Origin: a virus
Taxonomy: Duplodnaviria > Heunggongvirae > Uroviricota > Caudoviricetes
IMG/VR virus record: IMGVR_UViG_2778261172_000005
Location: 1 to 36,440 of that record
Direction: 5' to 3' (one strand)
DNA length: 36,440 nt
Under the pieces are notes generated by a model that saw nothing but the letters and a program-made list of their open reading frames with translations, was not told the DNA's origin and did no database searches. Shown one piece after another: positions 1 to 35,858 of the stretch. The position numbers were made by a program, and so were the translations under genes. Within the stretch, counting starts at the first letter, position 1. Each line of letters starts with the position of its first letter.

Positions 1-1362
1 ATGTTTAAACCGGAACTCCTTTCCCCGGCGGGAACGCTGAAAAATATGCGTTACGCTTTCGCTTATGGCGCAGATGCTGTTTATGCGGGCCAGCCGCGTT
101 ATTCCCTGCGTGTGCGCAACAACGAATTCAACCACGAAAATCTTCAGCTCGGCATCAATGAAGCCCACGCGCTGGGGAAAAAGTTTTATGTCGTGGTCAA
201 CATTGCACCGCACAACGCCAAGCTGAAAACCTTTATCCGTGACCTGAAACCGGTGGTGGAAATGGGGCCGGATGCGCTGATTATGTCCGATCCAGGGCTG
301 ATTATGCTGGTGCGTGAGCACTTCCCTGAAATGCCGATCCACCTTTCGGTGCAGGCTAACGCCGTGAACTGGGCGACGGTGAAATTCTGGCAGCAAATGG
401 GCCTGACCCGCGTGATCCTCTCTCGCGAGCTGTCGCTGGAAGAGATTGAAGAGATCCGCAATCAGGTGCCGGATATGGAGATCGAGATCTTCGTTCACGG
501 CGCGCTGTGCATGGCCTACTCCGGTCGCTGCCTGCTCTCTGGCTATATCAACAAGCGCGACCCGAACCAGGGCACCTGCACCAACGCCTGCCGCTGGGAG
601 TACAACGTCCAGGAAGGGAAAGAAGATGACGTTGGCAACATCGTACACAAGTACGAACCGATTCCGGTGCAAAATGTTGAGCCGACGCTGGGTATCGGCG
701 CGCCAACCGACAAAGTGTTTATGATCGAAGAAGCCCAGCGTCCGGGCGAGTATATGACCGCGTTTGAAGATGAGCACGGCACTTACATCATGAACTCGAA
801 AGATCTGCGCGCTATCGCCCATGTTGAACGCCTGACCAAAATGGGCGTGCATTCGCTGAAAATCGAAGGCCGTACCAAATCTTTCTACTATTGCGCACGC
901 ACCGCACAGGTTTATCGCAAAGCTATTGATGACGCCGCTGCGGGCAAACCGTTTGACACCAGCCTGCTGGAAACCCTTGAAGGCCTGGCGCATCGTGGCT
1001 ATACCGAAGGTTTCCTGCGTCGTCATACTCACGACGATTATCAGAACTACGAATACGGTTATTCAGTTTCTGACCGCCAGCAGTTTGTTGGTGAGTTTAC
1101 CGGTGAGCGCAAGGGGGACCTCGCGGCGGTAGCGGTGAAAAATAAATTCTCCGTTGGCGACAGCCTTGAGCTGATGACGCCGCAAGGCAACATTAATTTT
1201 ACCCTTGAGCACATGGAAAACGCCAAAGGTGAAGCTATGCCGGTCGCACCAGGCGATGGTTATACTGTGTGGCTCCCGGTCCCGCAGGATCTTGAGCTCA
1301 ATTACGCGCTGCTGATGCGTAATTTCTCCGGGGAAACCACGCGTAATCCCCACGGTAAGTGA
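1..1362 (+). CDS. yegQ: U32-family peptidase YegQ (host gene flanking the prophage)
   Basis: 453-aa ORF whose translation I recognise as E. coli YegQ; the window begins at its start codon; GC-rich host-like composition. Confidence 0.85.
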   Translation: MFKPELLSPAGTLKNMRYAFAYGADAVYAGQPRYSLRVRNNEFNHENLQLGINEAHALGKKFYVVVNIAPHNAKLKTFIRDLKPVVEMGPDALIMSDPGLIMLVREHFPEMPIHLSVQANAVNWATVKFWQQMGLTRVILSRELSLEEIEEIRNQVPDMEIEIFVHGALCMAYSGRCLLSGYINKRDPNQGTCTNACRWEYNVQEGKEDDVGNIVHKYEPIPVQNVEPTLGIGAPTDKVFMIEEAQRPGEYMTAFEDEHGTYIMNSKDLRAIAHVERLTKMGVHSLKIEGRTKSFYYCARTAQVYRKAIDDAAAGKPFDTSLLETLEGLAHRGYTEGFLRRHTHDDYQNYEYGYSVSDRQQFVGEFTGERKGDLAAVAVKNKFSVGDSLELMTPQGNINFTLEHMENAKGEAMPVAPGDGYTVWLPVPQDLELNYALLMRNFSGETTRNPHGK

Positions 1363-8661: not shown

Positions 8662-9579
8662 TCACTCCATTTCTCTTTTGGCTAATTCTTCCCATTCGTC
8701 GATTGAGTTATTATAAGGAAATACCTCTTTAACTATGAAAGGAATGTAGCTTTCTTCAGCATTGTGATGTATTTCATTACTGATATTACTTGTGATTCCG
8801 AATTTTACGTCAGGATCGTTTTCAGAGAAATGTATATGAAAAGGTTGTTGACCTAAAGCCTGTCTAATTTTATTTGCTTGTTCTGATGGAAGGACTTTAA
8901 GTAGCTGTTTGAATGTTTTTTTATTAAAGTCTAGAGAAATGGCCATATCAATATCTCCGGGTATCATAGATATGCACGTGTATGACCGTTCGCTCAATCG
9001 ACTAATAAATTTAGTATTTATAGCAGGGGCACTAAAAGAACCATCTTTAACCAAACCCATTTTTCGAATATGAATTCCAAAATCAGGTGCATAACTCAAG
9101 ACATCCGGATTGGCTTTAATATCTGGATTTAATATCCTAAATAATTTTTCCCAGTAATTACCAATGTCTTTCAAAGAAAATCTGAGTATTGGGTGGAGTT
9201 CCCGTATACTATATAGAACAAATTCATTCCCATTGCACAATGCATACATTTCTGCCCTTATTTCTGGATGTATAGCATAACTATAGGCTTGCTCAACGTG
9301 CATGCTTTTGGTTATTTTTTCATTAGGGGCCTTTGCATCAAGAATCCAATATGGTCGGTCGTTAGAAAGAAAAACATAATCCGGTACTATTGAAATCTTT
9401 CTTGGCTGTGAACCTATTGAGACAAATGGATGTGTAAGCGTTTTGCTCCTGATTACACGACTATCTCCCGATGCTTTATAACCAAGAGCTTTAATAATTG
9501 GTAAAATCAACTCTTCTCTGACTGAATCCTCTTTAAATTCATCTGAGCTTAGTAAGTTAAAATCAAAATCATCAAACAT
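8662..9579 (-). CDS. cargo protein with N-terminal PD-(D/E)xK restriction-endonuclease-like domain (HsdR-N/Mrr-like), 305 aa; candidate defence nuclease
   Basis: Motifs E-x...PDYVF...WILDAK...EQAYSYA in the order typical of the PD-(D/E)xK fold; AT-rich gene at the FI-G position where P2 carries Z/fun; own terminator; ATG preceded by a G-run SD. Confidence 0.6.
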   Translation of the reverse strand: MFDDFDFNLLSSDEFKEDSVREELILPIIKALGYKASGDSRVIRSKTLTHPFVSIGSQPRKISIVPDYVFLSNDRPYWILDAKAPNEKITKSMHVEQAYSYAIHPEIRAEMYALCNGNEFVLYSIRELHPILRFSLKDIGNYWEKLFRILNPDIKANPDVLSYAPDFGIHIRKMGLVKDGSFSAPAINTKFISRLSERSYTCISMIPGDIDMAISLDFNKKTFKQLLKVLPSEQANKIRQALGQQPFHIHFSENDPDVKFGITSNISNEIHHNAEESYIPFIVKEVFPYNNSIDEWEELAKREME

Positions 9580-10130: not shown

Positions 10131-10859
10131 CTACAATTTAATTTTTAGTCTTTTAGGAGCATCGTATAGAGTAGATATTTTTATTTCGGCTTTACAACCC
10201 TTATCCTCAATTGCCAATGTGTATGCCTGCCTTAAGTTTTTTTCCATTCTTGGGTCAAATAGCACGGTGTCTAATAGTTCAACTGGATTAATTTCAAACT
10301 GGAAAATATCATTATCGACACTATTATCATCACCAGAATATATTAAACGAACTTCGCTTTCGTGTTCAAACTCCACGCGTTTGTATAAAAGCGATTCAGC
10401 AATGCCTGAGCCATTAGTGTTGAATAAATCAATTGACAAGAGTTTTTCCGAAAGAGTATCCTCCGGAAGATAAGAAACCTTGCCTATAAAACACCTTAAA
10501 TTATGGTAAGTCGGCTCTGCTTTTTGAAGTGCGGCTAATAGTTTTCTTGGTGTGGTTGAAACTCTTACACCATTTTTATCATGGGAATATATCCGCCACA
10601 TTGCATCGGTTTCACTATGAAATGTCCAGCATTGCCCATAAACAGAATCTCTTGCGGCAACTGTTCCTGTTTGACCATCAGAAGTTTCAATTACACAATT
10701 TAATAAAGCGTTCTCAAAAGGGTCATCCCATTTTCTTGGTTTTACTAAAGTTAATTTTTTTTCTTCAAGCAATTGAAGAAAACGGTGTATTGGCATAATT
10801 CTATAAATAGGTATATCCAATGATTCATCTGTTAAATTAATATAGTTATTATAGCTCAT
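10131..10859 (-). CDS. DUF2971-like cargo protein, 242 aa; candidate single-gene defence or abortive-infection factor
   Basis: N-terminal IYRIMPIHRFLQLLEEKKL...PRKWDDPFE matches my recollection of the DUF2971 signature (YR.P..RF...L...L...P..F.DP.E); strongly AT-rich; flanked by direct repeats. Confidence 0.5.
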   Translation of the reverse strand: MSYNNYINLTDESLDIPIYRIMPIHRFLQLLEEKKLTLVKPRKWDDPFENALLNCVIETSDGQTGTVAARDSVYGQCWTFHSETDAMWRIYSHDKNGVRVSTTPRKLLAALQKAEPTYHNLRCFIGKVSYLPEDTLSEKLLSIDLFNTNGSGIAESLLYKRVEFEHESEVRLIYSGDDNSVDNDIFQFEINPVELLDTVLFDPRMEKNLRQAYTLAIEDKGCKAEIKISTLYDAPKRLKIKL

Positions 10860-11142: not shown

Positions 11143-11670
11143 TTATTGCGGCATTTCCGGCCATTCAGGATTTGCAGGATCCACACGACTGACCAGAACG
11201 CTGTAGCGTTCCCAAGCCTCCAGCCGTGTGCGCTCCTCCTCTGTTGCCATGTTCAGTCTGACCGCGCGCTCCAGCGGCAAAATCACGGATTCAGCATCTG
11301 CAAGAAGTCTGGCTTTCCGAATTTCTGCCTGCTGCTGTAATTCCTCTGCCGTATAAATGCGTTTAATCACTTTGCCGTCCTTAAACATCCAGCCCCCTGA
11401 AATATCCGCCCGTCGGTTAGCAGTAATATCCGCCACTTCAACCACACTTAATCCATCCGGTCTGATAGCTGTCACATCCTTTTCCACATAGCGGATGATA
11501 TTATCTTTGTCGTACGCTATTTTTATCGTGTCATCAGCAAAATACTTTTGTTCTTCGTACCAGTTCTTACCATCTTCTGTAAAAAACCAGACAACATCAA
11601 AGCCCTTTGTCAATTGATATTGTTCAACTGTTTTTGGATTACCCGCCGTTATATTTATCAAATGCTGCAT
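11143..11670 (-). CDS. G: tail fibre assembly protein (P2 gpG-like)
   Basis: 175-aa ORF downstream of H; sequence and synteny. Confidence 0.85.
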
Positions 11671-11673
11671 AAA

Positions 11674-13992
11674 TTATACCTGCGCTACGTTATACCATGT
11701 CCCGTTAATGTATTTCTGCACCGGTCTGTAATATATGCCACCAATGTTATCGGCAGAGTTTGAGCCGGTATCCTGAACAATAATGCCGGAATATACACAC
11801 CCGGACGGTGCCTGATGTGTCCATGTCATGCCATTGTTCGCAGGTTTGTATGTGGCAGCACCACCAAGCCGGATATCCCGGACATAGCGTGAATCAAAGT
11901 TGCCATAGTTAGATGGTGATACCTGCCCGTTAACAGCAAAAGTGATGCTGTTATCTGTATTTCTCTGACTGTAAAAATGCCAGCCTGCATCATCACCTAA
12001 TTCAGCCACCACCGGACGACTTGAGTTTCCCCACAAATTGAATGCGGCTTCCTTCGTGGATGTATTACTGCTGCTGACCGTGAATTTTTTCCCGCTACCG
12101 GCACGTACTTTGGTACTTGAGACAATATCACCAGTAACATTCAGGCCATGCCCCATTGATACAGCACCAGTGGCATCATTTATAATCAGCGGTCTTAAAT
12201 TATTATAAGTGCCTAATCTGTCACCTGATTTAGTCAACATAAAATAAGTGCTGCTGCCATCATTCCTGATAAAGAAACCATAATTGCCATAAGCAATGCG
12301 CAGACCATTAGCACTGAGTGATGTAATCTCACCTCTTGAACGGAGACCATAAGCGGAGCTGAGTGATAATTCTTCCTGAGCATCAGTATTACCAGTCGCC
12401 CAACGAACTACCCCGCCCTGTACTGTTTCATGCCAGATAGTGTCTCCTTCTCCACCACGAAACTTTCTGAGATATTTTTTGCCGCCTCTTGTGCCTGAAC
12501 ATAAGGCCGTAGACATATAGGCATTCTGGCTTCCACCGTCCTGATTAATCGTTCCGGTCATTGCGTCGCCCTGACGATTCCAGTCACGACGCCAGCCGGG
12601 GGAGTAGCCGTCCCCATGATTAATGTAAGTGAATTGTGCGCTGGTTGTACCGCCACCGCTTGATGTTGTCGGCGTGGTCACTCGGATAGTGATTGCAGAT
12701 TTAGTTCCCATGACCTCGACGACACAACCAGCCAGGTGGATATCACCACATCCGGTATCCGTAATGATTTTGTTATTTGCATATGACCAGGAGCCTTTGC
12801 ACATCCAGTACGGATGATTAAATGCACCACGGGAATCCAGCCATTCAATAAACTGAGCGGTTGTCCAGTTTCCGGCTTCAGTGCTCAAAGCGCCGCTATA
12901 AGCACGACAGGCACCGATATTTTTCGTGAAGGTATCCTTTCCCGGAATATCCGCACCATTCTGATCTTTCTGAAGACGTTTTTCAGCATTGTCATAGGCA
13001 GACTTCACCGCTTTTGATGTTGCGGCCAGCGTTTCAGAATCACTGTTGGTGGCGCTACTGAGCTGGACAAGCCCTTTTCGCGCCGTGGTGGCATCCTGTG
13101 CAGTGTATTTCCCGTTAGCAAGGTCATACGCAGCCTTTACCGCCTTTGGCGTTGCCGCAAGCGTTTCAGCCGTGCTGTTAGTGGCACTACTGAGCTGGAC
13201 AAGGCCTTTTCGCGCTATGGTGGCGTCCTGTGCGGTATATTTCCCGTTAGCAAGGTCATACGCGGCCTTTACCGCTTTCGGCGTTGCGGCTAGCGTTTCA
13301 GACGTGCTGTTGGTCACACTACTGAGCTGAACAAGGCCTTTTCGCGCCGTGGTGGCATCCTGCGCAGTATATTTCCCGTTAGCAAGGTCATAGGCGGCCT
13401 TTACCGCTTTCGGCGTTGCGGCCAGTGTTTCAGACGTGCTGTTGGTCGCACTGCTTAACTGAGTAAAACCTTTTGCGGTCAGCGAGGCGTCCGGGTGACG
13501 TCGTGACTGTTCGTGCTCTGCAATTTTGTCATCAACGTAATCCTGCGTTGCCATCACCGTTGTGGTGTCAATGGTCAGCTCCACTGAGGCCACACTGCTG
13601 ACGATGATGACCATGCGGCAGGTCTGCGAACGCCCTGAGCCTTCGGCAAGAGCTGGCTTATAACTTTCGGCCATGTTCGCCACGGCAATTAACGTTCCCG
13701 CATCATCGTACAGGCCAAGCTCACGCATCCAGAAACCGCCCACCTCCGGCGGAATAACCAGCTCTGCGATAATATAATTACTGTTTCGTTTGTCCTGACT
13801 GATTTTGTTCAGCGCATGTCGCCAGACTTCGTGGATAAGCCCGGTCTGTCCGGCATCCGGGACAGGCAATTTACCACCGCCATCCCCGACGGCCATCGTG
13901 GTAATGTTGACCTTCCGCCCTTCCGGCGCGGTTGCCGCTGCCAGCTTTGCTGCACCGGCAGTGGTGATAACGGTTCTGAATTTTGTGCTCAT
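11674..13992 (-). CDS. H: tail fibre protein (P2 gpH-like) with four internal 44-aa tandem repeats
   Basis: 772-aa ORF; repeated unit KGLVQLSSATNSTSETLAATPKAVKAAYDLANGKYTAQDATTAR; position between I and G. Confidence 0.85.
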   Translation of the reverse strand: MSTKFRTVITTAGAAKLAAATAPEGRKVNITTMAVGDGGGKLPVPDAGQTGLIHEVWRHALNKISQDKRNSNYIIAELVIPPEVGGFWMRELGLYDDAGTLIAVANMAESYKPALAEGSGRSQTCRMVIIVSSVASVELTIDTTTVMATQDYVDDKIAEHEQSRRHPDASLTAKGFTQLSSATNSTSETLAATPKAVKAAYDLANGKYTAQDATTARKGLVQLSSVTNSTSETLAATPKAVKAAYDLANGKYTAQDATIARKGLVQLSSATNSTAETLAATPKAVKAAYDLANGKYTAQDATTARKGLVQLSSATNSDSETLAATSKAVKSAYDNAEKRLQKDQNGADIPGKDTFTKNIGACRAYSGALSTEAGNWTTAQFIEWLDSRGAFNHPYWMCKGSWSYANNKIITDTGCGDIHLAGCVVEVMGTKSAITIRVTTPTTSSGGGTTSAQFTYINHGDGYSPGWRRDWNRQGDAMTGTINQDGGSQNAYMSTALCSGTRGGKKYLRKFRGGEGDTIWHETVQGGVVRWATGNTDAQEELSLSSAYGLRSRGEITSLSANGLRIAYGNYGFFIRNDGSSTYFMLTKSGDRLGTYNNLRPLIINDATGAVSMGHGLNVTGDIVSSTKVRAGSGKKFTVSSSNTSTKEAAFNLWGNSSRPVVAELGDDAGWHFYSQRNTDNSITFAVNGQVSPSNYGNFDSRYVRDIRLGGAATYKPANNGMTWTHQAPSGCVYSGIIVQDTGSNSADNIGGIYYRPVQKYINGTWYNVAQV
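12990..13490. repeat. tandem array of about 3.8 copies of a 132-bp unit inside gene H
   Basis: Units begin at about 13031, 13163, 13295 and 13427, with partial copies at both ends; copies differ at a few positions. Confidence 0.8.
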
Positions 13993-16495: not shown

Positions 16496-17251
16496 TTAGT
16501 TGTAGCACTTCTCTATAATCTTCATACACTCCTCATGAGCTAAATCATGGCTGTCAAATTCTTTATTAAAAAAGAAGAAAAACGCCTTATTAACCTGAGG
16601 TATTTCAATAAAAATAAATTCATCAGCCTTATGAAAGAAATGAAAACTCTTGTTTGATGTTTCAAAAACCATCAAAGAATTATGTTTTTTATCCTTCCAT
16701 TTCGACATCAGATTGCTTCGCGATTTTCGTATAATCCTGAAGACATCCCCCGGCGTCGTATCGACATCCCCCCAAAACATTGCAACCGGGAAGTTTGCAA
16801 GAAAAGGGATATAATCACCCCCTTTATACCTGAGAAAGCGGGTCCGTAAATCCATTAATTGCAACTTAAAGCCCATGTATTGCAACCACCATATGATGCA
16901 ATCATATTCATAATCTGTTAACTCATCCCCCCTCTTTTCCGTAAGAAATTTCTTCAGGTTATACTCAAACACTCCCAGCAAATCAGAATTGCACACTCTG
17001 CATGCTGGTACAGTGACTTTAATGTAATGAGTTGACTGATTATTCTTTTTATTAATTAAAGATTTTTCAGCATTTGACTCAAAGGCCCACTGAGGAATAA
17101 TGTGCTCACGAGTAATATCGTCAGAGCTCCCGCATAACACACATATATCAGCATTATGGTCAGCAATAATACAATCCATAACTTTCTTTTGAGAATGCTT
17201 TACTCTTTTTCTCAAAATGGAAAACTTTTTATCCACAAACACCCGTCTCAT
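16496..17251 (-). CDS. HNH-family nuclease, 251 aa, inserted between S and V; cargo gene, either a defence factor or a free-standing homing endonuclease
   Basis: CVLCGSSDDITREHIIPQ...N...CRVCN gives a CxxC..EH..N..CxxC HNH motif; strongly AT-rich versus flanks; its ATG overlaps the S stop codon (ATGA); no equivalent gene in canonical P2. Confidence 0.65.
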   Translation of the reverse strand: MRRVFVDKKFSILRKRVKHSQKKVMDCIIADHNADICVLCGSSDDITREHIIPQWAFESNAEKSLINKKNNQSTHYIKVTVPACRVCNSDLLGVFEYNLKKFLTEKRGDELTDYEYDCIIWWLQYMGFKLQLMDLRTRFLRYKGGDYIPFLANFPVAMFWGDVDTTPGDVFRIIRKSRSNLMSKWKDKKHNSLMVFETSNKSFHFFHKADEFIFIEIPQVNKAFFFFFNKEFDSHDLAHEECMKIIEKCYN

Positions 17252-26975: not shown

Positions 26976-27521
26976 ATGATAAATATTAATGAAGAAATTA
27001 ATAATTCTTTCGATGAGTTTGATGAGGAGGATAAACAGCAAGCTTACTTATCTTTCTTTAAAAATAGTTTCCCTTTTTTACTTTGCCCAACTCTATTCAA
27101 ACGCAGTGAAGATCTCCCTCAATTAAATTGGGTGAAAGTAAAATATACTGAGCATGCGGCTCATACTTTCCCAAATCAACAGGGAGTATATATGTTTATG
27201 GTTGGTTTCGAAAGCACTAAGCTCCCCAATAATTCATATGTTATGTATGTAGGAAAGGCCGGCGATACTAATTCCAACAACACAATCTGCAAAAGGTTTA
27301 AAGATTACGTTAATCCATCTGGATTTAGAGACAGGCCCAGAGTTAAGAAACTCATTCAGCATTTTAGTGAGCATTTATATTATTACTATGCAACACTCCC
27401 AACAGGGCAATCCACAGCAGATGTTGAATCCACTTTAGCCGATATTTTCGCACCACCTTGTTGTCAACGAGATTTTTCAGCTAATGTGCGAAGCTTATTG
27501 AGAGGAGTTAGAATTATATGA
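26976..27521 (+). CDS. GIY-YIG-like nuclease-domain cargo protein, 181 aa; first gene of a two-gene operon at the old/tin position
   Basis: GVYMF...YVMYVGKAGD...RFKDY...E...N, arranged as in the GIY-YIG fold with a longer than usual spacer between the first two motifs; very AT-rich; stop overlaps the next ATG. Confidence 0.5.
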   Translation: MININEEINNSFDEFDEEDKQQAYLSFFKNSFPFLLCPTLFKRSEDLPQLNWVKVKYTEHAAHTFPNQQGVYMFMVGFESTKLPNNSYVMYVGKAGDTNSNNTICKRFKDYVNPSGFRDRPRVKKLIQHFSEHLYYYYATLPTGQSTADVESTLADIFAPPCCQRDFSANVRSLLRGVRII

Positions 27522-28657
27522 ATCAACGTTTAGTCCTTCCATGTTTGAGAGGCTATATGGGGAGCTGGATTACATATAGTTGCATGATGAGACTTTCAGA
27601 TGCATCCAATTTGATCGGGTTTGCTGAGGAACTCCATCAAATTGATAAATTGTCAGACAAAATACAACGTGAATTAAATAATGATAGGGCTGAAGAAATC
27701 TCTCATTATTTGGTTAGCAATGATGATCGCTTCTTTAACTCATTAGTTGTAGCTGTTTATGATGGCGATCCAAATTGGCATGAAATTGGAGGAATAACTC
27801 CAAACAATGAAGAAGCCTCTTTGCTTGATTTTCCTGAGTATGCAGGGAATTGCATTGGTTTTTTATCCATTACAAGAGATGAAAAATTTTTTGCACTTGA
27901 TGGACAACATCGCTTAGCTGGCATCAAAGCTGCTCTTAAAGTTAATAGCGATATTGCTGATGATCTAATTAGCGTTATTATTGTTGCTCATGCTAATACG
28001 CCAGAAGGTAAAGTAAGATCCAGAAGATTATTTACCACTTTAAATAAAAAGGCAAAATTAGTTAGTAAAGATACCATTATAGCTTTAGATGAGGATGATA
28101 TAGCAGCATGCATAACAAGACGTCTAATTGAGGCAGAGGATTTCATATACTTCAATGAAGATAACGTATCCTTTAACTCTGGTCCTGTTAGAGATAAAAC
28201 GAGCATCACATCTATTGTTAATATATATGATAATGTTCAGAAGTTAGTAGCATATAAATTAGGTGTTAAAATTACCGAGTTGGAAAGATACAAGTATAAA
28301 GATCATATTGACATATACAACTTCATTTCTAATTTTTATAGCTACACATTCGAAGGATGTGAAGAGTTAATCAAAGTAGCTAAAGGTGAACAACCTGCTG
28401 GATTTTATAGAAATTCCGAAACTGGTGGGCATATTTTGTTTAGACCTATTGGTTGGGATTTATATACAGATATAGTACTCTATGCCATGACTCATTTTAA
28501 TCATGACCTTAAAAAGGCAATTCAACACATCACCAAACACAATCTAAACATGTCTGGCTCTATTCTATCCAACAAAGTTTGGTCAACAAAACAAAAGAAA
28601 ATCCTTAAGATAAGTGCTAAAAACATAAAAGCAATACAAAAAAGTTTGTTATCATAA
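27518..28657 (+). CDS. DGQHR-domain (DndB/ParB-like) cargo protein, 379 aa; second gene of the operon
   Basis: Exact signature FFALDGQHRLAGIK preceded by a QR motif, as in the DGQHR/DndB family; AGGAG Shine-Dalgarno inside the end of the upstream gene; ATGA overlap; AT-rich. Confidence 0.6.
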   Translation: MNQRLVLPCLRGYMGSWITYSCMMRLSDASNLIGFAEELHQIDKLSDKIQRELNNDRAEEISHYLVSNDDRFFNSLVVAVYDGDPNWHEIGGITPNNEEASLLDFPEYAGNCIGFLSITRDEKFFALDGQHRLAGIKAALKVNSDIADDLISVIIVAHANTPEGKVRSRRLFTTLNKKAKLVSKDTIIALDEDDIAACITRRLIEAEDFIYFNEDNVSFNSGPVRDKTSITSIVNIYDNVQKLVAYKLGVKITELERYKYKDHIDIYNFISNFYSYTFEGCEELIKVAKGEQPAGFYRNSETGGHILFRPIGWDLYTDIVLYAMTHFNHDLKKAIQHITKHNLNMSGSILSNKVWSTKQKKILKISAKNIKAIQKSLLS

Positions 28658-28815: not shown

Positions 28816-28974
28816 TTATCCGGGCTTCACTTTTCGTCTCGTATATCCATACAGAATAAACGAGCCTCCGCTCTCATAATTACGGTGATTTTTAAGAAAC
28901 TCCGCGCGTTTCTTTCCTTCCAGCCCAAGGTCTAAATATTTTGTGTGCAGCTTTACCTCATGAATTTTTGCCAT
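28816..28974 (-). CDS. small hypothetical protein (52 aa) coupled to the end of gene A
   Basis: ATG overlaps the A stop codon (TAATG); no recognisable motif; start chosen inside the 64-aa ORF-track call. Confidence 0.35.
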   Translation of the reverse strand: MAKIHEVKLHTKYLDLGLEGKKRAEFLKNHRNYESGGSFILYGYTRRKVKPG

Positions 28975-31265
28975 TATGTCCACTCCATTACAGCTGAGAA
29001 TCCCGGCCACTCATCAGCGACCGGATACGTGAATTTTTTCCCGTCATAATTTACTGTTGCCCCACGCGCCAGCGCCTCAAGCTCCCATCGCTGCGGCCTG
29101 ATACCGTTCTGAGCAAGGTCAACGCGGATACGGGTAATTTGCGTTCGTTCCGACCGGGTCAGTCTGGCCGATGGCGCTATTTCATGTGGTTTTAACGGGC
29201 TTCCGTTTCTCTGCTGACGATTTGGTGTTCTCAGTTCGTGTTTTAATGCACCTCTGAGCGCCCTCACGACCTCTGGCTCATTCCATTCGATAACACCGTC
29301 ATCAACCAGATTAAGCACTGCTGCGGCGTGCTCAGAAGGCGTGGGAGCCGGTGACGAAGTATCACCGTCGGTAAGCTTTCCACAGTTATTGACAGGACTC
29401 CGAGGCGCGGCGATGCCGCTTTTTAAAGTCAAAGGCTCAACGACCGGAACTTTCGGCACAATGCGCCAGTCCGTCGTTCTGGTGATATGAATATGACGCG
29501 CGCCGAGATGCGGCGCGTAAATGCCGACCACTCTCTCGACTTCTTCCTCATACTCGTTAACGTCATCCGACGGGCTACGGGCGACCCTGACAGTCTGACA
29601 ATCGCGCGGGACATTTGCCCCGCCCTGCGCGCTGATATACAGCGCAAAATCGCCACTGTCTGCGGCAGCGCGTGCAGCCTCGACGCGTTCGTCAAACTCA
29701 TCAGCAATGCTGACGCCGCGAGGCAACTTACGTAGTTCACGGTAAGCCCCCATTGTCGGCAGGCCAACCGTTTTAAATTGCGGGATGCGCCACGTTGACG
29801 CCCATGCGGTAACAGCCGCAGCAGTGTCTTTCAGCGGCCTGCCGGTATCGTTATCGAGCTGACCATCCAGTGCATAGCCGTCGATGTTTTTTGAAATGTA
29901 TTTCGCGATATATCCCGCAGCACCGCCCCGGTTAAGGTGTTTTGCCTGAAAACGGTTTCGCGCAGCTCCTCTTTCGTCGCCATCCTCTTTGAGCGCATAG
30001 CGACGCATGATTTCGATAATCTGGTTACGCTGGCGTGGATTACAAAAAAGCATCATATGCCAGTGCGGCGTTCCGTCGTGGTGTGGCTCGACGACTCGCA
30101 AACCGTAGACCTGTAAATCATTATCCTTGAATGCCGTGCGCATCAGGCTCCAGATACGGCAGAGATAACGCTGCGCATCCTTCGGATTAAATGCCTCATC
30201 ATTCCAGCCGTGATTAAGCTGGACGGTTTTACTTTCGCCTTTTCCGACCTGACGTGTCGGATGATACTTTGACGGCGCGGTCAGCGTGATAAACATCCCC
30301 ACATCACCCTCTGCGGCGGCGTAACGCTCAATACCGGCAATGGTGTTCATCAGCTCCATCCGGCGAATTTCAGGATTAGAAATACTGCCCATCACCTTAC
30401 TGATAAGGTCGATGCGTTCGCCGGTTTCCCTGTTTTCAAGGTCACACGATTTAAGAAATTCCAGATTTGCCTGACGGCGCGTACGCACATCACGAATAGC
30501 ATGTTTACTGGCATAAGGTGAACGGTCTTTATTGACCTCCCCGACAGCAATCAGTAACGCCTCATGCCAGCGCATACGCTGGCCTTTAAGCTGATGAGTC
30601 CACCACTCATCGTTAAACAGACGGGCAATGGCAGAATATGCCTGCCTCGTGGTCATCTGCCCTTTACGGTATTTTTTCCAGTAGAGAGGGGAAATATTGA
30701 AAGCTCGTGCAGCGCCAGCAACATGACCATACAGGTGAGCCTGCGCCTCATCCGTAAACAGCGATTCTTTCTCGCCATGCGCATCCACCCAGGCATCGCT
30801 GAGTTCCTCATACATCATGAAAAGCTGCGATGAGATACGGGCGGCAAATTTTTTCAGCTCCTTGTCATTCATTCCCGGCAGGCGTGCATACTGGTCGCGC
30901 TCTGCCAGAAACAGCAACGACGCGTCGGTGTTCATTTCATGGCGCTGATTCACGCGCTCAATGCGCGGCCATAAACGACGCTGAAAAGTGGATGTGAGGA
31001 AATAAAACCCGTGTAGCGGACTTTTATTGCGCCGGATGTAGTCATAGCGTGAAGTAAACAGCGAGCGCAAAAAGTAAGGCAGGCGGTTAATCGTGGATAA
31101 AACACCTTGCACCTGACGCATCTCGTCACGTGTAAGGGTTCTTTCGCGCCCGACGGCCTCGCGTGGCGCGTTCCATGCATAAGCACCGGTAAACGCCTTA
31201 CCGGTGCCTGCAGCAAATGCTGACGGAGGTACGCAGGTGTATTGCTCCTGGAAAGAATGACTCAT
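28974..31265 (-). CDS. A: replication initiation protein A (rolling-circle nicking endonuclease, P2 gpA-like)
   Basis: 763-aa ORF; sequence recognised; position next to cos and the hotspot as in P2. Confidence 0.9.
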   Translation of the reverse strand: MSHSFQEQYTCVPPSAFAAGTGKAFTGAYAWNAPREAVGRERTLTRDEMRQVQGVLSTINRLPYFLRSLFTSRYDYIRRNKSPLHGFYFLTSTFQRRLWPRIERVNQRHEMNTDASLLFLAERDQYARLPGMNDKELKKFAARISSQLFMMYEELSDAWVDAHGEKESLFTDEAQAHLYGHVAGAARAFNISPLYWKKYRKGQMTTRQAYSAIARLFNDEWWTHQLKGQRMRWHEALLIAVGEVNKDRSPYASKHAIRDVRTRRQANLEFLKSCDLENRETGERIDLISKVMGSISNPEIRRMELMNTIAGIERYAAAEGDVGMFITLTAPSKYHPTRQVGKGESKTVQLNHGWNDEAFNPKDAQRYLCRIWSLMRTAFKDNDLQVYGLRVVEPHHDGTPHWHMMLFCNPRQRNQIIEIMRRYALKEDGDERGAARNRFQAKHLNRGGAAGYIAKYISKNIDGYALDGQLDNDTGRPLKDTAAAVTAWASTWRIPQFKTVGLPTMGAYRELRKLPRGVSIADEFDERVEAARAAADSGDFALYISAQGGANVPRDCQTVRVARSPSDDVNEYEEEVERVVGIYAPHLGARHIHITRTTDWRIVPKVPVVEPLTLKSGIAAPRSPVNNCGKLTDGDTSSPAPTPSEHAAAVLNLVDDGVIEWNEPEVVRALRGALKHELRTPNRQQRNGSPLKPHEIAPSARLTRSERTQITRIRVDLAQNGIRPQRWELEALARGATVNYDGKKFTYPVADEWPGFSAVMEWT

Positions 31266-32269
31266 TCACATACACCGGCATAGACACTACTGCAAACGGC
31301 TTTATCATTCGCCGAAGCCAGTAAATCAAACTGAGTACCCCCACGCGTTGTCATTGTCCAGTCATGGTAGGTTTCTATTCCGTATGCCTCGACTGTTACA
31401 ATCTCAATACGACGTTCTGCGCGTAGCGGATCATGTGTGGATGGGAAAAAAGTGGAATTTCCCCGACGGGAGCACGACGCAACCAGTCGTTCCCATTCAG
31501 CAACCCGTTTTATTTCCTCCGGCCACCGGCGAAAAATTTCTGCCAGTTCAGATTTACGGACATGAATACATGGCATACAACCAACACGGCCACACCCCTG
31601 CTGATATAACGGATTTGGCTTAATGTCATGTCTTCTGGCTATTGCAAATACATCTTCATGCTTCCAGTGCAAAATCGGGCGATATACATGCAATCCGGGG
31701 GTGTTGTCTGCATCCTCTTCCCAGACAGGTAAAGCAGCGCGTGATGGCGATTCCTGAGCACGCACTCCCTGCCAGCTAATCACTTCCTCAAATTCATTGA
31801 GTAAAGGCAATATTACCTGAGAACGCACGGGCTCATGTTTCAGTTCAAATGTGCAAAATCTGGCTTTGGTTGATGGGAAACGCCCCTTCCACAGACACAA
31901 ATCAAGAAACGGGATACCCGTTGGTTTGAGAATTTCCAGCGCACAACTGATGCGCTGGTGCGCTTCTTCTTCCGACATTCCACAATCGTTAACCAACAAA
32001 TCAGGCCATTTGGTCTGGATAAACTTGCGCTTTGATTCAATCCGGCAGGAAAAATCAGCTCTGACTCTTTTAATTGGGCCAAGCCGTTTTTCCAGATAAT
32101 CCAGATATTTCATTGTCTGTGGATGTTCATGTCCCGTATCAGCAAAAACCGGCAATATGGGTACATTTTCTTCAATAGCGACAAGCCACTGAGCAAGGCT
32201 GTCCTTTCCACCTGAAACAAAAATAACATTGATGGTATTTTCAGTATGGCAACGAGCATCAGTAATCAT
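31262..32269 (-). CDS. PAPS-reductase-like PP-loop protein (DndC-like fold), 335 aa
   Basis: PP-loop motif VSGGKDS near the N-terminus and a cysteine cluster (GCGRVGCMPC); stop overlaps the A start (ATGA); absent from canonical P2. Confidence 0.7.
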   Translation of the reverse strand: MITDARCHTENTINVIFVSGGKDSLAQWLVAIEENVPILPVFADTGHEHPQTMKYLDYLEKRLGPIKRVRADFSCRIESKRKFIQTKWPDLLVNDCGMSEEEAHQRISCALEILKPTGIPFLDLCLWKGRFPSTKARFCTFELKHEPVRSQVILPLLNEFEEVISWQGVRAQESPSRAALPVWEEDADNTPGLHVYRPILHWKHEDVFAIARRHDIKPNPLYQQGCGRVGCMPCIHVRKSELAEIFRRWPEEIKRVAEWERLVASCSRRGNSTFFPSTHDPLRAERRIEIVTVEAYGIETYHDWTMTTRGGTQFDLLASANDKAVCSSVYAGVCE

Positions 32270-32544
32270 TCAGACGCTCCTCTGGAGAACGCCTCTGAAC
32301 AACGCTTGCTGAGTTGCTCAACCTGCGCGTTTAAATCAGCAAAAGACTTTGCGCTTCCGGTCAGAATATCGTGATGCATCAGGCCGGAAACGAGCTGGCT
32401 TAATTTCGGGTAATAACCAACCACCGCCAGCCATTCCTGACCGGCGTTTTTACCGCTTTCCGCTCTCTTTTTCTCGTGGAGAATAAACTGAAAGCTGTCA
32501 CTGGTAACGACATAACGTTCGCCAATTTCAATACGAATACTCAT
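32266..32544 (-). CDS. hypothetical early-region protein (92 aa)
   Basis: ORF in the B-A early operon at the position of the P2 orf80-83 cluster; start and stop overlap its neighbours. Confidence 0.5.
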   Translation of the reverse strand: MSIRIEIGERYVVTSDSFQFILHEKKRAESGKNAGQEWLAVVGYYPKLSQLVSGLMHHDILTGSAKSFADLNAQVEQLSKRCSEAFSRGASE

Positions 32545-32765
32545 GCCATTCTCCGGTAATGCTTGTTTTTTGCTTCAAAGACTGACTGGCAGGAAACACA
32601 ACGCGTGGCTGACGGATAAGCTGCACGACGGGCAGCAGGTATTGGCGCGTCACACTCTTCGCAAACCAGCGCAGAAACACCGCAATGTTTTACCCTTGCC
32701 GCGTTAATCTGGCGCTCCAGTAATTCAGCCTGTTGTTCCTGAATAAAATCTACGTTGTCCGGCAT
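32541..32765 (-). CDS. TraR/DksA-family C4 zinc-finger protein (74 aa)
   Basis: CEECDAPIP...CVSCQ four-cysteine motif; position in the early operon. Confidence 0.7.
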   Translation of the reverse strand: MPDNVDFIQEQQAELLERQINAARVKHCGVSALVCEECDAPIPAARRAAYPSATRCVSCQSVFEAKNKHYRRMA

Positions 32766-33070
32766 TACCAGCTCCTTTTGTCGTTCAGCTTCTTAAATTC
32801 ATCAGCGCAATAGCTGGCGATTTCTGTCGTTAATTTTGTCAGTTCATCCACTGAGGAAATTTGCTTGTGGAATACAGCGCGTTTAACAAGTAAATTGACC
32901 ACATCAGACAGGAGGTTTAATTCATTCTGATAAATCGCGATAACAGATTCAGTGATGTCGCGTTTTTCTTTATCAAGACAAAGTTGAATAAGAGACAAAT
33001 CACCATTTTCCATAACGGCGATTTTTAAGGCGTTATTCAGTAATACAACTGAATGAGAACAGGACATCAA
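32765..33070 (-). CDS. hypothetical early-region protein (101 aa)
   Basis: ORF in the early operon; somewhat AT-rich; no recognised motif. Confidence 0.45.
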
Positions 33071-33324
33071 AGTACCTCCCCGCGAGACAATCCGATATTG
33101 TGAAATTTTTCCGACTCCTGACTGAGCAGCTCGACTATCTCCACGCGGGATAACTCCGCCTTTGTGATGTGGCGAATCATGGCGTCAAGATGAGAAGAAA
33201 AGCGCGTCGCCGCGTCGGCCTGTGCTTCGGTTCTGGCCTGTTGCAGCAGTAATGCGTATTTACCGCACTGATTTTCAGAAACTGTATGCATGACTTTCTC
33301 CAGGCAAAAAGAAGCCCCGCACAA
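33067..33324 (-). CDS. hypothetical early-region protein (85 aa)
   Basis: ORF directly downstream of B in the early operon. Confidence 0.45.
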
Positions 33325-33354
33325 TTAAGTGCGTTAAAAACTCTGGTTAATTAC

Positions 33355-33855
33355 TTAATGCAGATATTGCTCTGGTTTTACCGACGTCAGAATTGTCGGT
33401 GCATACTCAAACAGGCTGAATAATTCACGTAATGCACGGAATAAAGCATCACGCCAGTAACATGACTCTTCATTAATTCGCCAGTATGGCTGGTTGAATT
33501 CTTTTTCAGTCAATCCGGCATGCATAAATAAAGTACGACGCTGACTGACTGTTAAAAAACTAATATATGCATACTCACTTGCACCGACCTGACGGCGTTT
33601 TGAGAATGCCCCACGCAATTCATCAATTGCACAAACCAGCCGTTCACGTTCGACGTCGTTCATTTCTTCAAAACGCATCGTTGCGTGACGTTGTTTTAAC
33701 TGCGCATGAAAGCAAACTGTTAGCCGTTCGCGCTCCATCATCTGATTATAATAATCACATGTATCCTGCCAGCGAGGAACGGCAAGATGCTTACCAATTA
33801 TCCGGCGCATGGTTGCTGGCTGTTTTTCAACGAGATTGAGCGTCATCACTGTCAT
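33355..33855 (-). CDS. B: replication protein B (helicase-loader-like, P2 gpB-like, 166 aa)
   Basis: Sequence recognised; the third in-frame ATG is chosen because GGAGG sits 8 nt upstream and it gives the P2 gpB length. Confidence 0.85.
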   Translation of the reverse strand: MTVMTLNLVEKQPATMRRIIGKHLAVPRWQDTCDYYNQMMERERLTVCFHAQLKQRHATMRFEEMNDVERERLVCAIDELRGAFSKRRQVGASEYAYISFLTVSQRRTLFMHAGLTEKEFNQPYWRINEESCYWRDALFRALRELFSLFEYAPTILTSVKPEQYLH

Positions 33856-34022
33856 TTCCATACCCTCCGGCTTTTCAGAAAGGTCAGAGCCTTTTTTAAC
33901 GGACTCTGTTTTTTGGTGCGGATAATGATTCCCTTACGCCCCTTACCGTGGGTGATGGTGAAGTCAATCGCCCTGGGGCTTTCGTTACGCAGTAACTGAG
34001 CAATACAACGAGGCTCATTCAT
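33852..34022 (-). CDS. small early protein between cox and B (orf78-like, 56 aa)
   Basis: ATG with strong AAGGAG Shine-Dalgarno 6 nt upstream, 10 nt after the cox stop; its stop overlaps the B start (ATGA). Confidence 0.5.
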   Translation of the reverse strand: MNEPRCIAQLLRNESPRAIDFTITHGKGRKGIIIRTKKQSPLKKALTFLKSRRVWK

Positions 34023-34032
34023 ACGGTTCTCC

Positions 34033-34308
34033 TTAACGTGGTTCACCGAGACCTAACCACATCAACCAGCCGTCACGAATCTCTTTAGGACGGCTTTCAT
34101 AAGCCAGTTTTAGTCCGTTATTCCATGCCGGAAGGTATACCCAATATTCACCAGCACGCCCCGATACTGACTGAGGGTCAGTAATCTCAATAACTGGTAA
34201 TTTCCCTTTCTCAATCATGCCCCTTACAGCTCTTGGAGTTTTACCAATGAGTTTTGCAAACTCCTGATAAGGCACGGCATCAGTCACGCTTACAAGCTGT
34301 CTATTCAT
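34033..34308 (-). CDS. cox: Cox (excisionase / repressor of the lysogenic promoter)
   Basis: 91-aa ORF; C-terminal part ...SGRAGEYWVYLPAWNNGLKLAYESRPKEIRDGWLMWLGLGEPR recognised as P2 Cox. Confidence 0.9.
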   Translation of the reverse strand: MNRQLVSVTDAVPYQEFAKLIGKTPRAVRGMIEKGKLPVIEITDPQSVSGRAGEYWVYLPAWNNGLKLAYESRPKEIRDGWLMWLGLGEPR

Positions 34309-34429
34309 CTGCTACGATTCTCCCTTAGTGCTTCTAATGGCTCCTAATGGCTAATTATTGCCTAAAAGGATAACTCCAGAAGCGCAACATTTCACACTAT
34401 CAGCAAGAAATTACGCAATCGGAGTAATT
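34309..34429. promoter_or_regulatory. immunity switch region with divergent promoters for cox and C; contains tandem direct repeat CTAATGGCT x2 (34334..34352), a candidate repressor operator
   Basis: 121-bp gap between divergent cox and C; two identical 9-bp repeats spaced 10 bp apart; by analogy to P2 Pe/Pc, where the repressor binds direct repeats. Confidence 0.5.
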
Positions 34430-34729
34430 ATGTCAATAGACGTTTCGGAGAAGTTGAAGCTAATCCGTGAATCTGAAAGGTTAAACCGTAAAGAATTCAG
34501 TGAATTAACTGGTGTAGCCTACAGCTCACTTTCGAGCTATGAGAGCCGGTCAAAAAACGCTGGAGTTGAAGCCATAATGAAGGTCTTACAACATCCTAGA
34601 TTTACTAAATATACTTTGTGGTTCATGACTGATCAGGTAGCTCCAGAAGCCGGGCAAATTGCGCCCGCTCTCGCACACTTTGGGCAAAACGAAACAACGT
34701 CGCCCCACTCCGGTCAAAAGACTGGTTAA
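34430..34729 (+). CDS. C: immunity repressor C (99 aa)
   Basis: Internal ATG with GGAG Shine-Dalgarno; C-terminal ...FTKYTLWFMTDQVAPEAGQIAPALAHFGQNETTSPHSGQKTG recognised as P2 C; the ORF-track N-terminal extension would overlap the operator region. Confidence 0.85.
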   Translation: MSIDVSEKLKLIRESERLNRKEFSELTGVAYSSLSSYESRSKNAGVEAIMKVLQHPRFTKYTLWFMTDQVAPEAGQIAPALAHFGQNETTSPHSGQKTG

Positions 34730-34844
34730 CAATTTATCGTGAATATATTCATCACAAGTGCCTACTATTGGTGGCTAAATTTCAGCCACCACGAAAAAAG
34801 CGATTAGTAGTAGCAAAAAAAAGTACCACTCGGAGGGTTTTCTG

Positions 34845-35858
34845 ATGGCAATCAAAAAACTCGATGATGGTCGATATGAAGTGGACATCCGCCCTACTGG
34901 ACGTAACGGAAAACGCATCCGTAGGAAGTTTGATAAGAAAAGCGAAGCTGTCGCTTTCGAAAAATACACGTTGTACAACCACCACAATAAAGAATGGCTA
35001 TCAAAACCAACAGACAAACGACGTCTGTCGGAACTGACACAGATCTGGTGGGATTTAAAGGGTAAACACGAAGAGCATGGGAAATCTAATCTTGGAAAAA
35101 TTGAAATCTTCACAAAAATAACGAATGACCCATGCGCATTTCAAATCACGAAATCCCTTATCAGCCAGTACTGCGCCACCCGAAGAAGTCAGGGTATTAA
35201 ACCTTCGAGTATCAATCGTGATTTAACATGTATTAGCGGCATGTTTACAGCCCTGATTGAAGCGGAGTTATTCTTTGGTGAGCACCCTATCAGAGGGACA
35301 AAGAGGCTTAAGGAGGAAAAACCAGAAACAGGCTATCTCACACAGGAAGAAATTGCCTTACTGCTTGCAGCACTTGACGGCGACAATAAAAAGATTGCGA
35401 TTCTTTGCCTGAGTACAGGAGCACGTTGGGGAGAAGCAGCTCGTTTGAAAGCAGAAAATATCATCCATAACCGCGTCACGTTTGTTAAAACGAAAACAAA
35501 CAAACCACGCACCGTCCCGATCTCAGAGGCTGTTGCCAAAATGATCGCGGATAACAAACGAGGTTTTTTATTCCCTGATGCTGATTACCCTCGCTTCAGA
35601 CGAACAATGAAAGCAATAAAACCGGATTTGCCAATGGGGCAAGCCACACATGCACTAAGGCACAGCTTTGCCACTCATTTCATGATTAATGGAGGAAGTA
35701 TTATCACGCTACAACGGATACTAGGTCACACGCGGATTGAACAAACTATGGTTTACGCTCATTTTGCGCCAGAGTACCTTCAGGACGCCATTTCTCTTAA
35801 TCCGCTAAGAGGTGGTACTGAGGCCGAGAGTGTCCACACAGTGTCCACAGTAGAGTAA
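34845..35858 (+). CDS. int: tyrosine integrase (P2 Int-like)
   Basis: 337-aa ORF with C-terminal catalytic motifs (...HALRHSFATHF...LGH...VYAH); directly adjacent to attL. Confidence 0.9.
   Translation: MAIKKLDDGRYEVDIRPTGRNGKRIRRKFDKKSEAVAFEKYTLYNHHNKEWLSKPTDKRRLSELTQIWWDLKGKHEEHGKSNLGKIEIFTKITNDPCAFQITKSLISQYCATRRSQGIKPSSINRDLTCISGMFTALIEAELFFGEHPIRGTKRLKEEKPETGYLTQEEIALLLAALDGDNKKIAILCLSTGARWGEAARLKAENIIHNRVTFVKTKTNKPRTVPISEAVAKMIADNKRGFLFPDADYPRFRRTMKAIKPDLPMGQATHALRHSFATHFMINGGSIITLQRILGHTRIEQTMVYAHFAPEYLQDAISLNPLRGGTEAESVHTVSTVE

Follow-up and report, generated by a model that had tools for sequence, protein, structure and literature searches.

Copy number of a 44-residue tail fibre repeat varies in gene H of P2-like Escherichia coli prophages

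Tail fibre repeats in P2, Mu and lambdoid phages

The closest described relatives of the locus considered here are the tail fibre genes of phages P2, Mu and lambda, which contain the repeat listed by Pfam as PF03406 (Phage_fiber_2, 'phage tail fibre repeat'). Under the name 'Pf2' the repeat is known from lambda Stf and from the EHEC prophage collagen-like protein EPclB (PMC3368898). It was first identified in lambda Stf and is found consistently in prophage tail fibre proteins; its structure and function are little known, and rotary-shadowing electron microscopy assigns it tentatively to part of a globular feature (PMC3368898). The only PDB sequences with a PF03406 unit are Mu S constructs, and the in-situ study of Mu built just the N-terminus of the fibre (PMC11915804).

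The P2 fibre protein gpH (669 aa) is encoded together with gpG in the gene order V-W-J-I-H-G, and has two units, the first starting at aa 169, followed by an APLNSP... junction. Mu S (gp49; PDB 5yvq, 9ki1 and 8ju3) has one PF03406 unit (aa 112-155) and then a linker with the NGADIP junction. Far larger arrays than those of P2-type H occur in lambdoid Stf-like side-fibre proteins (P0121-P0123), in which 7-12 near-canonical and nearly identical units form higher-order two-unit repeats split by a APSSHTHPWNQITGVPT spacer. In all, 4,591 cluster representatives match the profile of the unit, with up to 23 stretches in one giant protein.

Two further kinds of variation provide a background. Host range in Mu is switched by inversion of the G segment, and the paper of Haggard-Ljungquist et al. 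1992 (cited in PMC13100340) reportedly has as both its title and its thesis that unrelated phages transfer tail fibre genes horizontally. In-frame variable-number tandem repeats (VNTRs) are a feature of surface proteins, as in the repeat regions of staphylococcal and streptococcal adhesins and in those of the Bordetella and Neisseria type.

The gene considered here lies in a viral sequence of 36,440 nt (IMG/VR record IMGVR_UViG_2778261172_000005), the whole of which is referred to below as the window. It had been named tail fibre gene H in a sequence-only reading, and this assignment was borne out by an N-terminal PF12571 domain, by the V-W-J-I-H-G order that it has in common with P2, and by 94.3% nucleotide identity to P2 H over query nt 1-858, the region that includes the homologous baseplate-attachment domain. 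The units are of the identical type and also start at aa 169, but there are four of them, followed by the NGADIP junction, where P2 has two and the APLNSP... junction. Similarity to P2 stops inside the array and the distal part is Mu-like; the window gene is therefore a mosaic H allele. Thus, the distal receptor-binding region is not of the P2 type: aa 334-487 resemble Mu S' (PDB 8ju3, 5e-91) and aa 544-771 resemble Mu S (PDB 5yvq, 4e-64). Mu S differs in turn in its N-terminal anchor and in having a single unit, without an array; the linker motif NGADIPGKDTFTKNIG that follows this unit also follows the array of window H. An invertible segment, as in Mu, was not seen in the window. The distal part of H joins segments that in Mu belong to two alternative G-segment orientations, and a gp34 trimerisation domain (PF21446) is found at aa 541-604.

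The array and the prophage around it

Only one array with a long period, at 12991-13452, came out of a Tandem Repeats Finder run on the window (3.5 copies of a period of 132, with 87% matches, no indels and a score of 693); the runner-up arrays across the 36-kb window have periods of at most 13 and scores of at most 45. Upon translation the full in-frame extent of the array is 12961-13488 on the minus strand, and it comprises four in-register 44-aa units within the 772-aa ORF (Table 1). The sequence-only reading, which had placed a 132-bp array encoding a 44-aa module at 12990-13490 and had given the protein 772 aa, was correct in these respects. Its description of 'nearly four' copies with scattered differences also holds. 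There are four units, 15-51 of 132 nt apart in pairwise comparison, and the count falls to 3.5 or 'nearly four' at the DNA level because the end of unit 4 has diverged: units 1-3 end in ...AYDLANGKYTAQD, whereas unit 4 ends in ...AYDNAEKRLQKDQ. Among units 1-3, third codon positions account for 41 of 65 differences. Units 2 and 3 differ at 15 of 132 nt, in 10 synonymous and 3 non-synonymous codons; with its internal units 11% apart, the window allele has therefore not changed recently.

All four units match the PF03406 model from end to end (247.4 bits against a cutoff of 22, in four stretches, the best of which spans profile positions 1-41 of 42), with no essential difference from the family. 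The context is that of a tail fibre gene, with PF12571 in the same ORF, baseplate genes I, J, W and V upstream, and the Caudo_TAP gene G next downstream. A 94-aa plus-strand ORF at 13046-13330 was rejected as a gene, being merely an antisense reading of the repeat. A scan of the whole window for Chi sites found none, but as only about one is expected by chance, their absence is uninformative.

Table 1. Gene H, its parts and landmark genes in the window
Feature	Position in H (aa)	Position in window	Strand	Basis or remark
Host U32 peptidase gene		1-1362	(+)	
Tail fibre assembly protein G		11143..11670	(-)	PF02413 Caudo_TAP, E=1.5e-33
Tail fibre gene H, P2-type	772 aa (2319 nt)	11674..13992	(-)	ORF and Pfam
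Mosaic distal (receptor-binding) part of H		11680..12993	(-)	PDB sequence matches
Conserved linker (NGADIP junction)		12913..12960	(-)	directly 3' of array
Repeat unit 4	301-344	12961-13092	(-)	terminal class; final 11 aa diverged (DNAEKRLQKDQ)
Repeat unit 3	257-300	13093-13224	(-)	internal unit, chimeric
Repeat unit 2	213-256	13225-13356	(-)	internal unit
Repeat unit 1	169-212	13357-13488	(-)	'first-unit' class ASLTAKGF...; PF03406 stretch 170-210
N-terminal tail-collar / baseplate-attachment domain	1-151	13540..13992	(-)	PF12571, E=2e-58
Phage integrase		34845-35858	(+)	

The window contains a nearly complete P2-like E. coli prophage of about 33 kb. Replication gene A and the integrase occupy 28974-35858. 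With a U32 peptidase gene of the host at one end and the integrase near the other, the window spans essentially the whole prophage. No tRNA gene was found in it.

Several other genes of the window were noted. A cargo hotspot at the Z/fun position of P2 separates G from the sheath gene and holds a gene for a 242-aa DUF2971 protein [10131-10859(-)] that strongly matches PDC-S31, a candidate defence family of PADLOC (E=1e-94). In the same hotspot, a 305-aa ORF [8662-9579(-)] has weak matches to REase_MTase_IIG (PADLOC, 9e-6) and HSDR_N (Pfam, 9e-5, below cutoff), and may be the partner of the PDC-S31 gene. An inserted ORF for a cysteine-rich protein of 251 aa [16496-17251(-), the orf30 position of P2] separates the tail-completion genes from baseplate gene V; it matched nothing in Pfam or PADLOC. 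Next to the head genes, a cassette of two genes [26976-28657(+)], encoding a protein of 181 aa without family match and a DndB-like protein of 379 aa (PF14072, 7.5e-32), looks like a further accessory or defence insertion. Directly upstream of replication gene A, and overlapping it, lies a gene for a 335-aa PAPS-reductase-domain protein [31262-32269(-); PF01507, 5e-35], an unusual cargo for the early region.

Copy number among relatives and the footprints of its change

Copy number was compared in 80 IMG/VR loci in which the N-terminus of H is 98-99% identical to that of the window, despite differing arrays and C-termini, with the units counted by an HMM made from the four window units. One, two, three, four and five units were found in 2, 16, 3, 45 and 9 complete ORFs, respectively, and the units abut in exact 44-aa register in all of these. 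A second set of viral contigs was fetched by the window's own 428-aa C-terminal region of H. On this one type of C-terminus there are alleles with three copies (728 aa; L086, L097, L105 and L111), four (772 aa, the majority), five (816 aa), six (860 and 873 aa) and eight (961 aa; L117), although arrays of more than four copies come mostly from short-read-derived IMG/VR contigs, in which repeat length is less certain. Over the 1287 nt after the array, the window differs by only 2 nt from a three-copy allele (L086) and by 12 nt from a six-copy allele (L083). The best 120 protein-database matches have 3-6 units, always in exact 44-aa register, and P2-type H proteins of other genera (Citrobacter, Salmonella, Buttiauxella, Scandinavium and others) have 1-4. 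The relatives thus have 1-8 copies; the count is not invariant, which bears out the expectation of the sequence-only reading that repeat number varies.

Complete E. coli genomes were sized with a query consisting only of the 500 nt flanking each side of the array. Among the best 60 complete-genome records, 55 span 1528 nt (four units), four span 1396 nt (three units) and one spans 1527 nt; two- and three-unit alleles are also present in an evenly spaced sample of complete E. coli genomes. Four copies are the modal state among E. coli P2-like prophages (45 of 75 viral-contig alleles and 55 of the best 60 complete-genome records); the window allele is therefore the common form and no unusual expansion. 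To call the array 'expanded', as had been done, is misleading on this account, and also because the unit belongs to a catalogued Pfam family whose lambdoid Stf-like members reach 11-12 units. Copy number partly tracks the type of junction, APLNSP occurring with 1-2 copies and NGADIP with 3-6. Two O145 strains, RM9467-C1 (two copies) and RM12761 (four), were considered as a clonal pair; their prophages are different ones, with different cargo and G genes, and the pair is therefore uninformative on rate.

The slipped recombination that had been proposed for the array has left direct footprints. In a near-isogenic pair of loci with six (L116) and eight units (L117), there are no differences in 1400 nt upstream of the array and one in 3500 nt downstream, and the arrays themselves agree throughout but for unit 4, of which L116 has one copy and L117 three 100% identical ones. 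Units 3-5 of L083, only 1-3 nt apart, represent a recent amplification. In L053, an allele with one copy, the unit follows unit 1 of a two-copy allele as far as about nt 82, and from about nt 80 onward it agrees with unit 2 of that allele at every position, which is the product expected of an in-register crossover that deletes one period. Unit 3 of the window is likewise chimeric: its 5' half (the first 55 nt) is like second-position units and the 3' remainder like third-position units, with 3 differences from class M before nt 55 and 7 after, versus 8 and 2, respectively, from class S. Only positional classes were used in these comparisons, clustering of unit DNA having given 46 clusters, too fine a division alone.

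A further set of footprints concerns the units as a population. Residues specific to a lineage are common to all units of an array, as with TDS...SEVLAAT in Buttiauxella and GKFTAVD in Citrobacter, a pattern that points to concerted evolution of the units. In a set of 18 distinct alleles of 772 aa, the four units have nucleotide diversities of 0.042-0.088, versus 0.018-0.021 in the adjacent N-terminal and post-array regions, and nearly all of the excess falls at third codon positions. The unit DNA is shuffled, but purifying selection preserves the peptide. Together, these footprints lend support to in-register unequal homologous recombination, slippage and gene conversion between the 132-bp units.

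The outcome is an in-frame VNTR. Copy number differs between near-identical sequences, both in the L116/L117 pair and in the range of 3-8 copies on one C-terminus. All alleles of 1-8 copies are in exact register and in frame, as 132 = 3 x 44 and every product therefore remains in frame. The likeness to the VNTRs of surface proteins lies in a unit that is a multiple of three, in copy number that is polymorphic in near-identical backgrounds, and in concerted units; a frameshift is impossible at the H locus, so that there is no on/off switch.

Role of the array and rival readings

It is probable that the locus consists of four PF03406 units between the anchor and the exchangeable distal part of a P2-type H, that it is an in-frame VNTR generated by unequal recombination or slippage, and that the window holds a common allele. 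The 44-aa units form the segment of H that links the baseplate-anchoring N-terminal domain to the receptor-binding distal part. In-register unequal homologous recombination or replication slippage can add or remove whole units with the reading frame kept, which is possible because the unit is 3 x 44 and neighbouring units are 80-90% identical. Such exchanges also homogenise the units within a lineage, and yield chimeric units. Since the units lie between the baseplate anchor and the distal part, the most economical view would have every unit lengthen the shaft of the trimeric fibre by a set amount, in which case copy number would set the reach of the fibre. Tuning of shaft length by copy number, as the sequence-only reading had it, is plausible. 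A single-sequence AF2 model of aa 141-366 as a monomer gave an all-helix guess with a mean pLDDT of 46, and was judged meaningless.

The units, being conserved across phages, may together with the NGADIP linker also provide homology patches for the swapping of distal host-range cassettes. One near-identical N-terminal type carries at least 11 C-terminal types, and these diverge from the end of the last unit or the linker onward. The mosaic C-terminal part of H plus the downstream gene G would fit the idea, put forward for this locus and also present in the literature, of a host-range module. Grouping of the G proteins at 80% identity was too coarse to resolve any co-variation of G with the tip of H. 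A large share of the H homologues in databases is annotated 'partial', with ends scattered downstream of the array, which suggests that contigs built from short reads are often interrupted within the mosaic distal region of the gene.

Three other accounts of the array have to be weighed against these data. That the array is chiefly a recombination joint, its units being shared with Mu S, P1-type and lambdoid Stf fibres and its copy-number variation being a neutral by-product, has a little less than an even chance of being right. It draws on the near-identical unit and NGADIP linker in Mu S (aa 112-155) and in lambdoid Stf-like proteins, on the multiplicity of C-terminal types on one N-terminal type and their divergence right at the end of the last unit, and on the transfer of fibre genes that Haggard-Ljungquist et al. 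are said to have argued for. However, a single unit would suffice as a homology patch, and strong purifying selection on the peptide in every copy, together with the occurrence of arrays across genera, suggests that the copies are structurally needed. This account is compatible with an in-frame VNTR between anchor and distal part, and does not exclude it. Error in assembly or annotation, by which the repeat would be mis-expanded, collapsed or non-coding, is effectively refuted, and we give it almost no credence. Assemblies classically go wrong at tandem repeats, and many homologues are annotated 'partial', but the units are resolvable by the 15-51 positions at which they differ, and the array is in frame in a 772-aa ORF, flanked on either side by Pfam domains. 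Furthermore, as the sequence-only reading had maintained in denying an artefact, the same 2319-nt gene is present, 97-100% identical, in each of the 40 complete E. coli genomes listed; it has 100% identity to the gene annotated 'tail fiber protein' in strain JNEC-KY180 (NZ_AP045177), and in the other 39 H is full-length with 97-98% identity. Matches covering at least 80% of window H are present in 173 genomes.

Recent gain and loss in near-isogenic backgrounds, and variation within one C-terminal type, might instead be taken to mean that copy number tunes fibre length adaptively, switching fast so as to suit how deep the surface layers of the host are (O-antigen or LPS core), and that the locus is a contingency locus for host range. 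This is unlikely. Four copies predominate strongly, and in complete genomes this could be a sign that stabilising selection favours a single length over any adaptive adjustment; the window's internal units, 11% apart, speak for an allele that has not recently changed; and copy number partly follows the junction type. The bolder proposal, in which unit number is a rapidly mutating, selected length dial for O-antigen or LPS thickness and the array is at the same time a crossover platform for new receptor-binding tips, is quite improbable.

The repeat family and the gene are already catalogued, as is the mosaicism of P2-type fibres, and the window allele is the commonest one. Copy-number polymorphism is the expected behaviour of such an array; among the papers searched, none described it in P2-like H genes, and a descriptive account would be new and unsurprising. 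Because H is polymorphic in copy number (1-8), no fixed length should be assumed for it in short-read assemblies or when P2-like prophages are typed by this gene. If copy number does set the reach of the fibre, the number of units would offer a simple and naturally tolerated means of varying the length of engineered P2/P4 or tailocin fibres.
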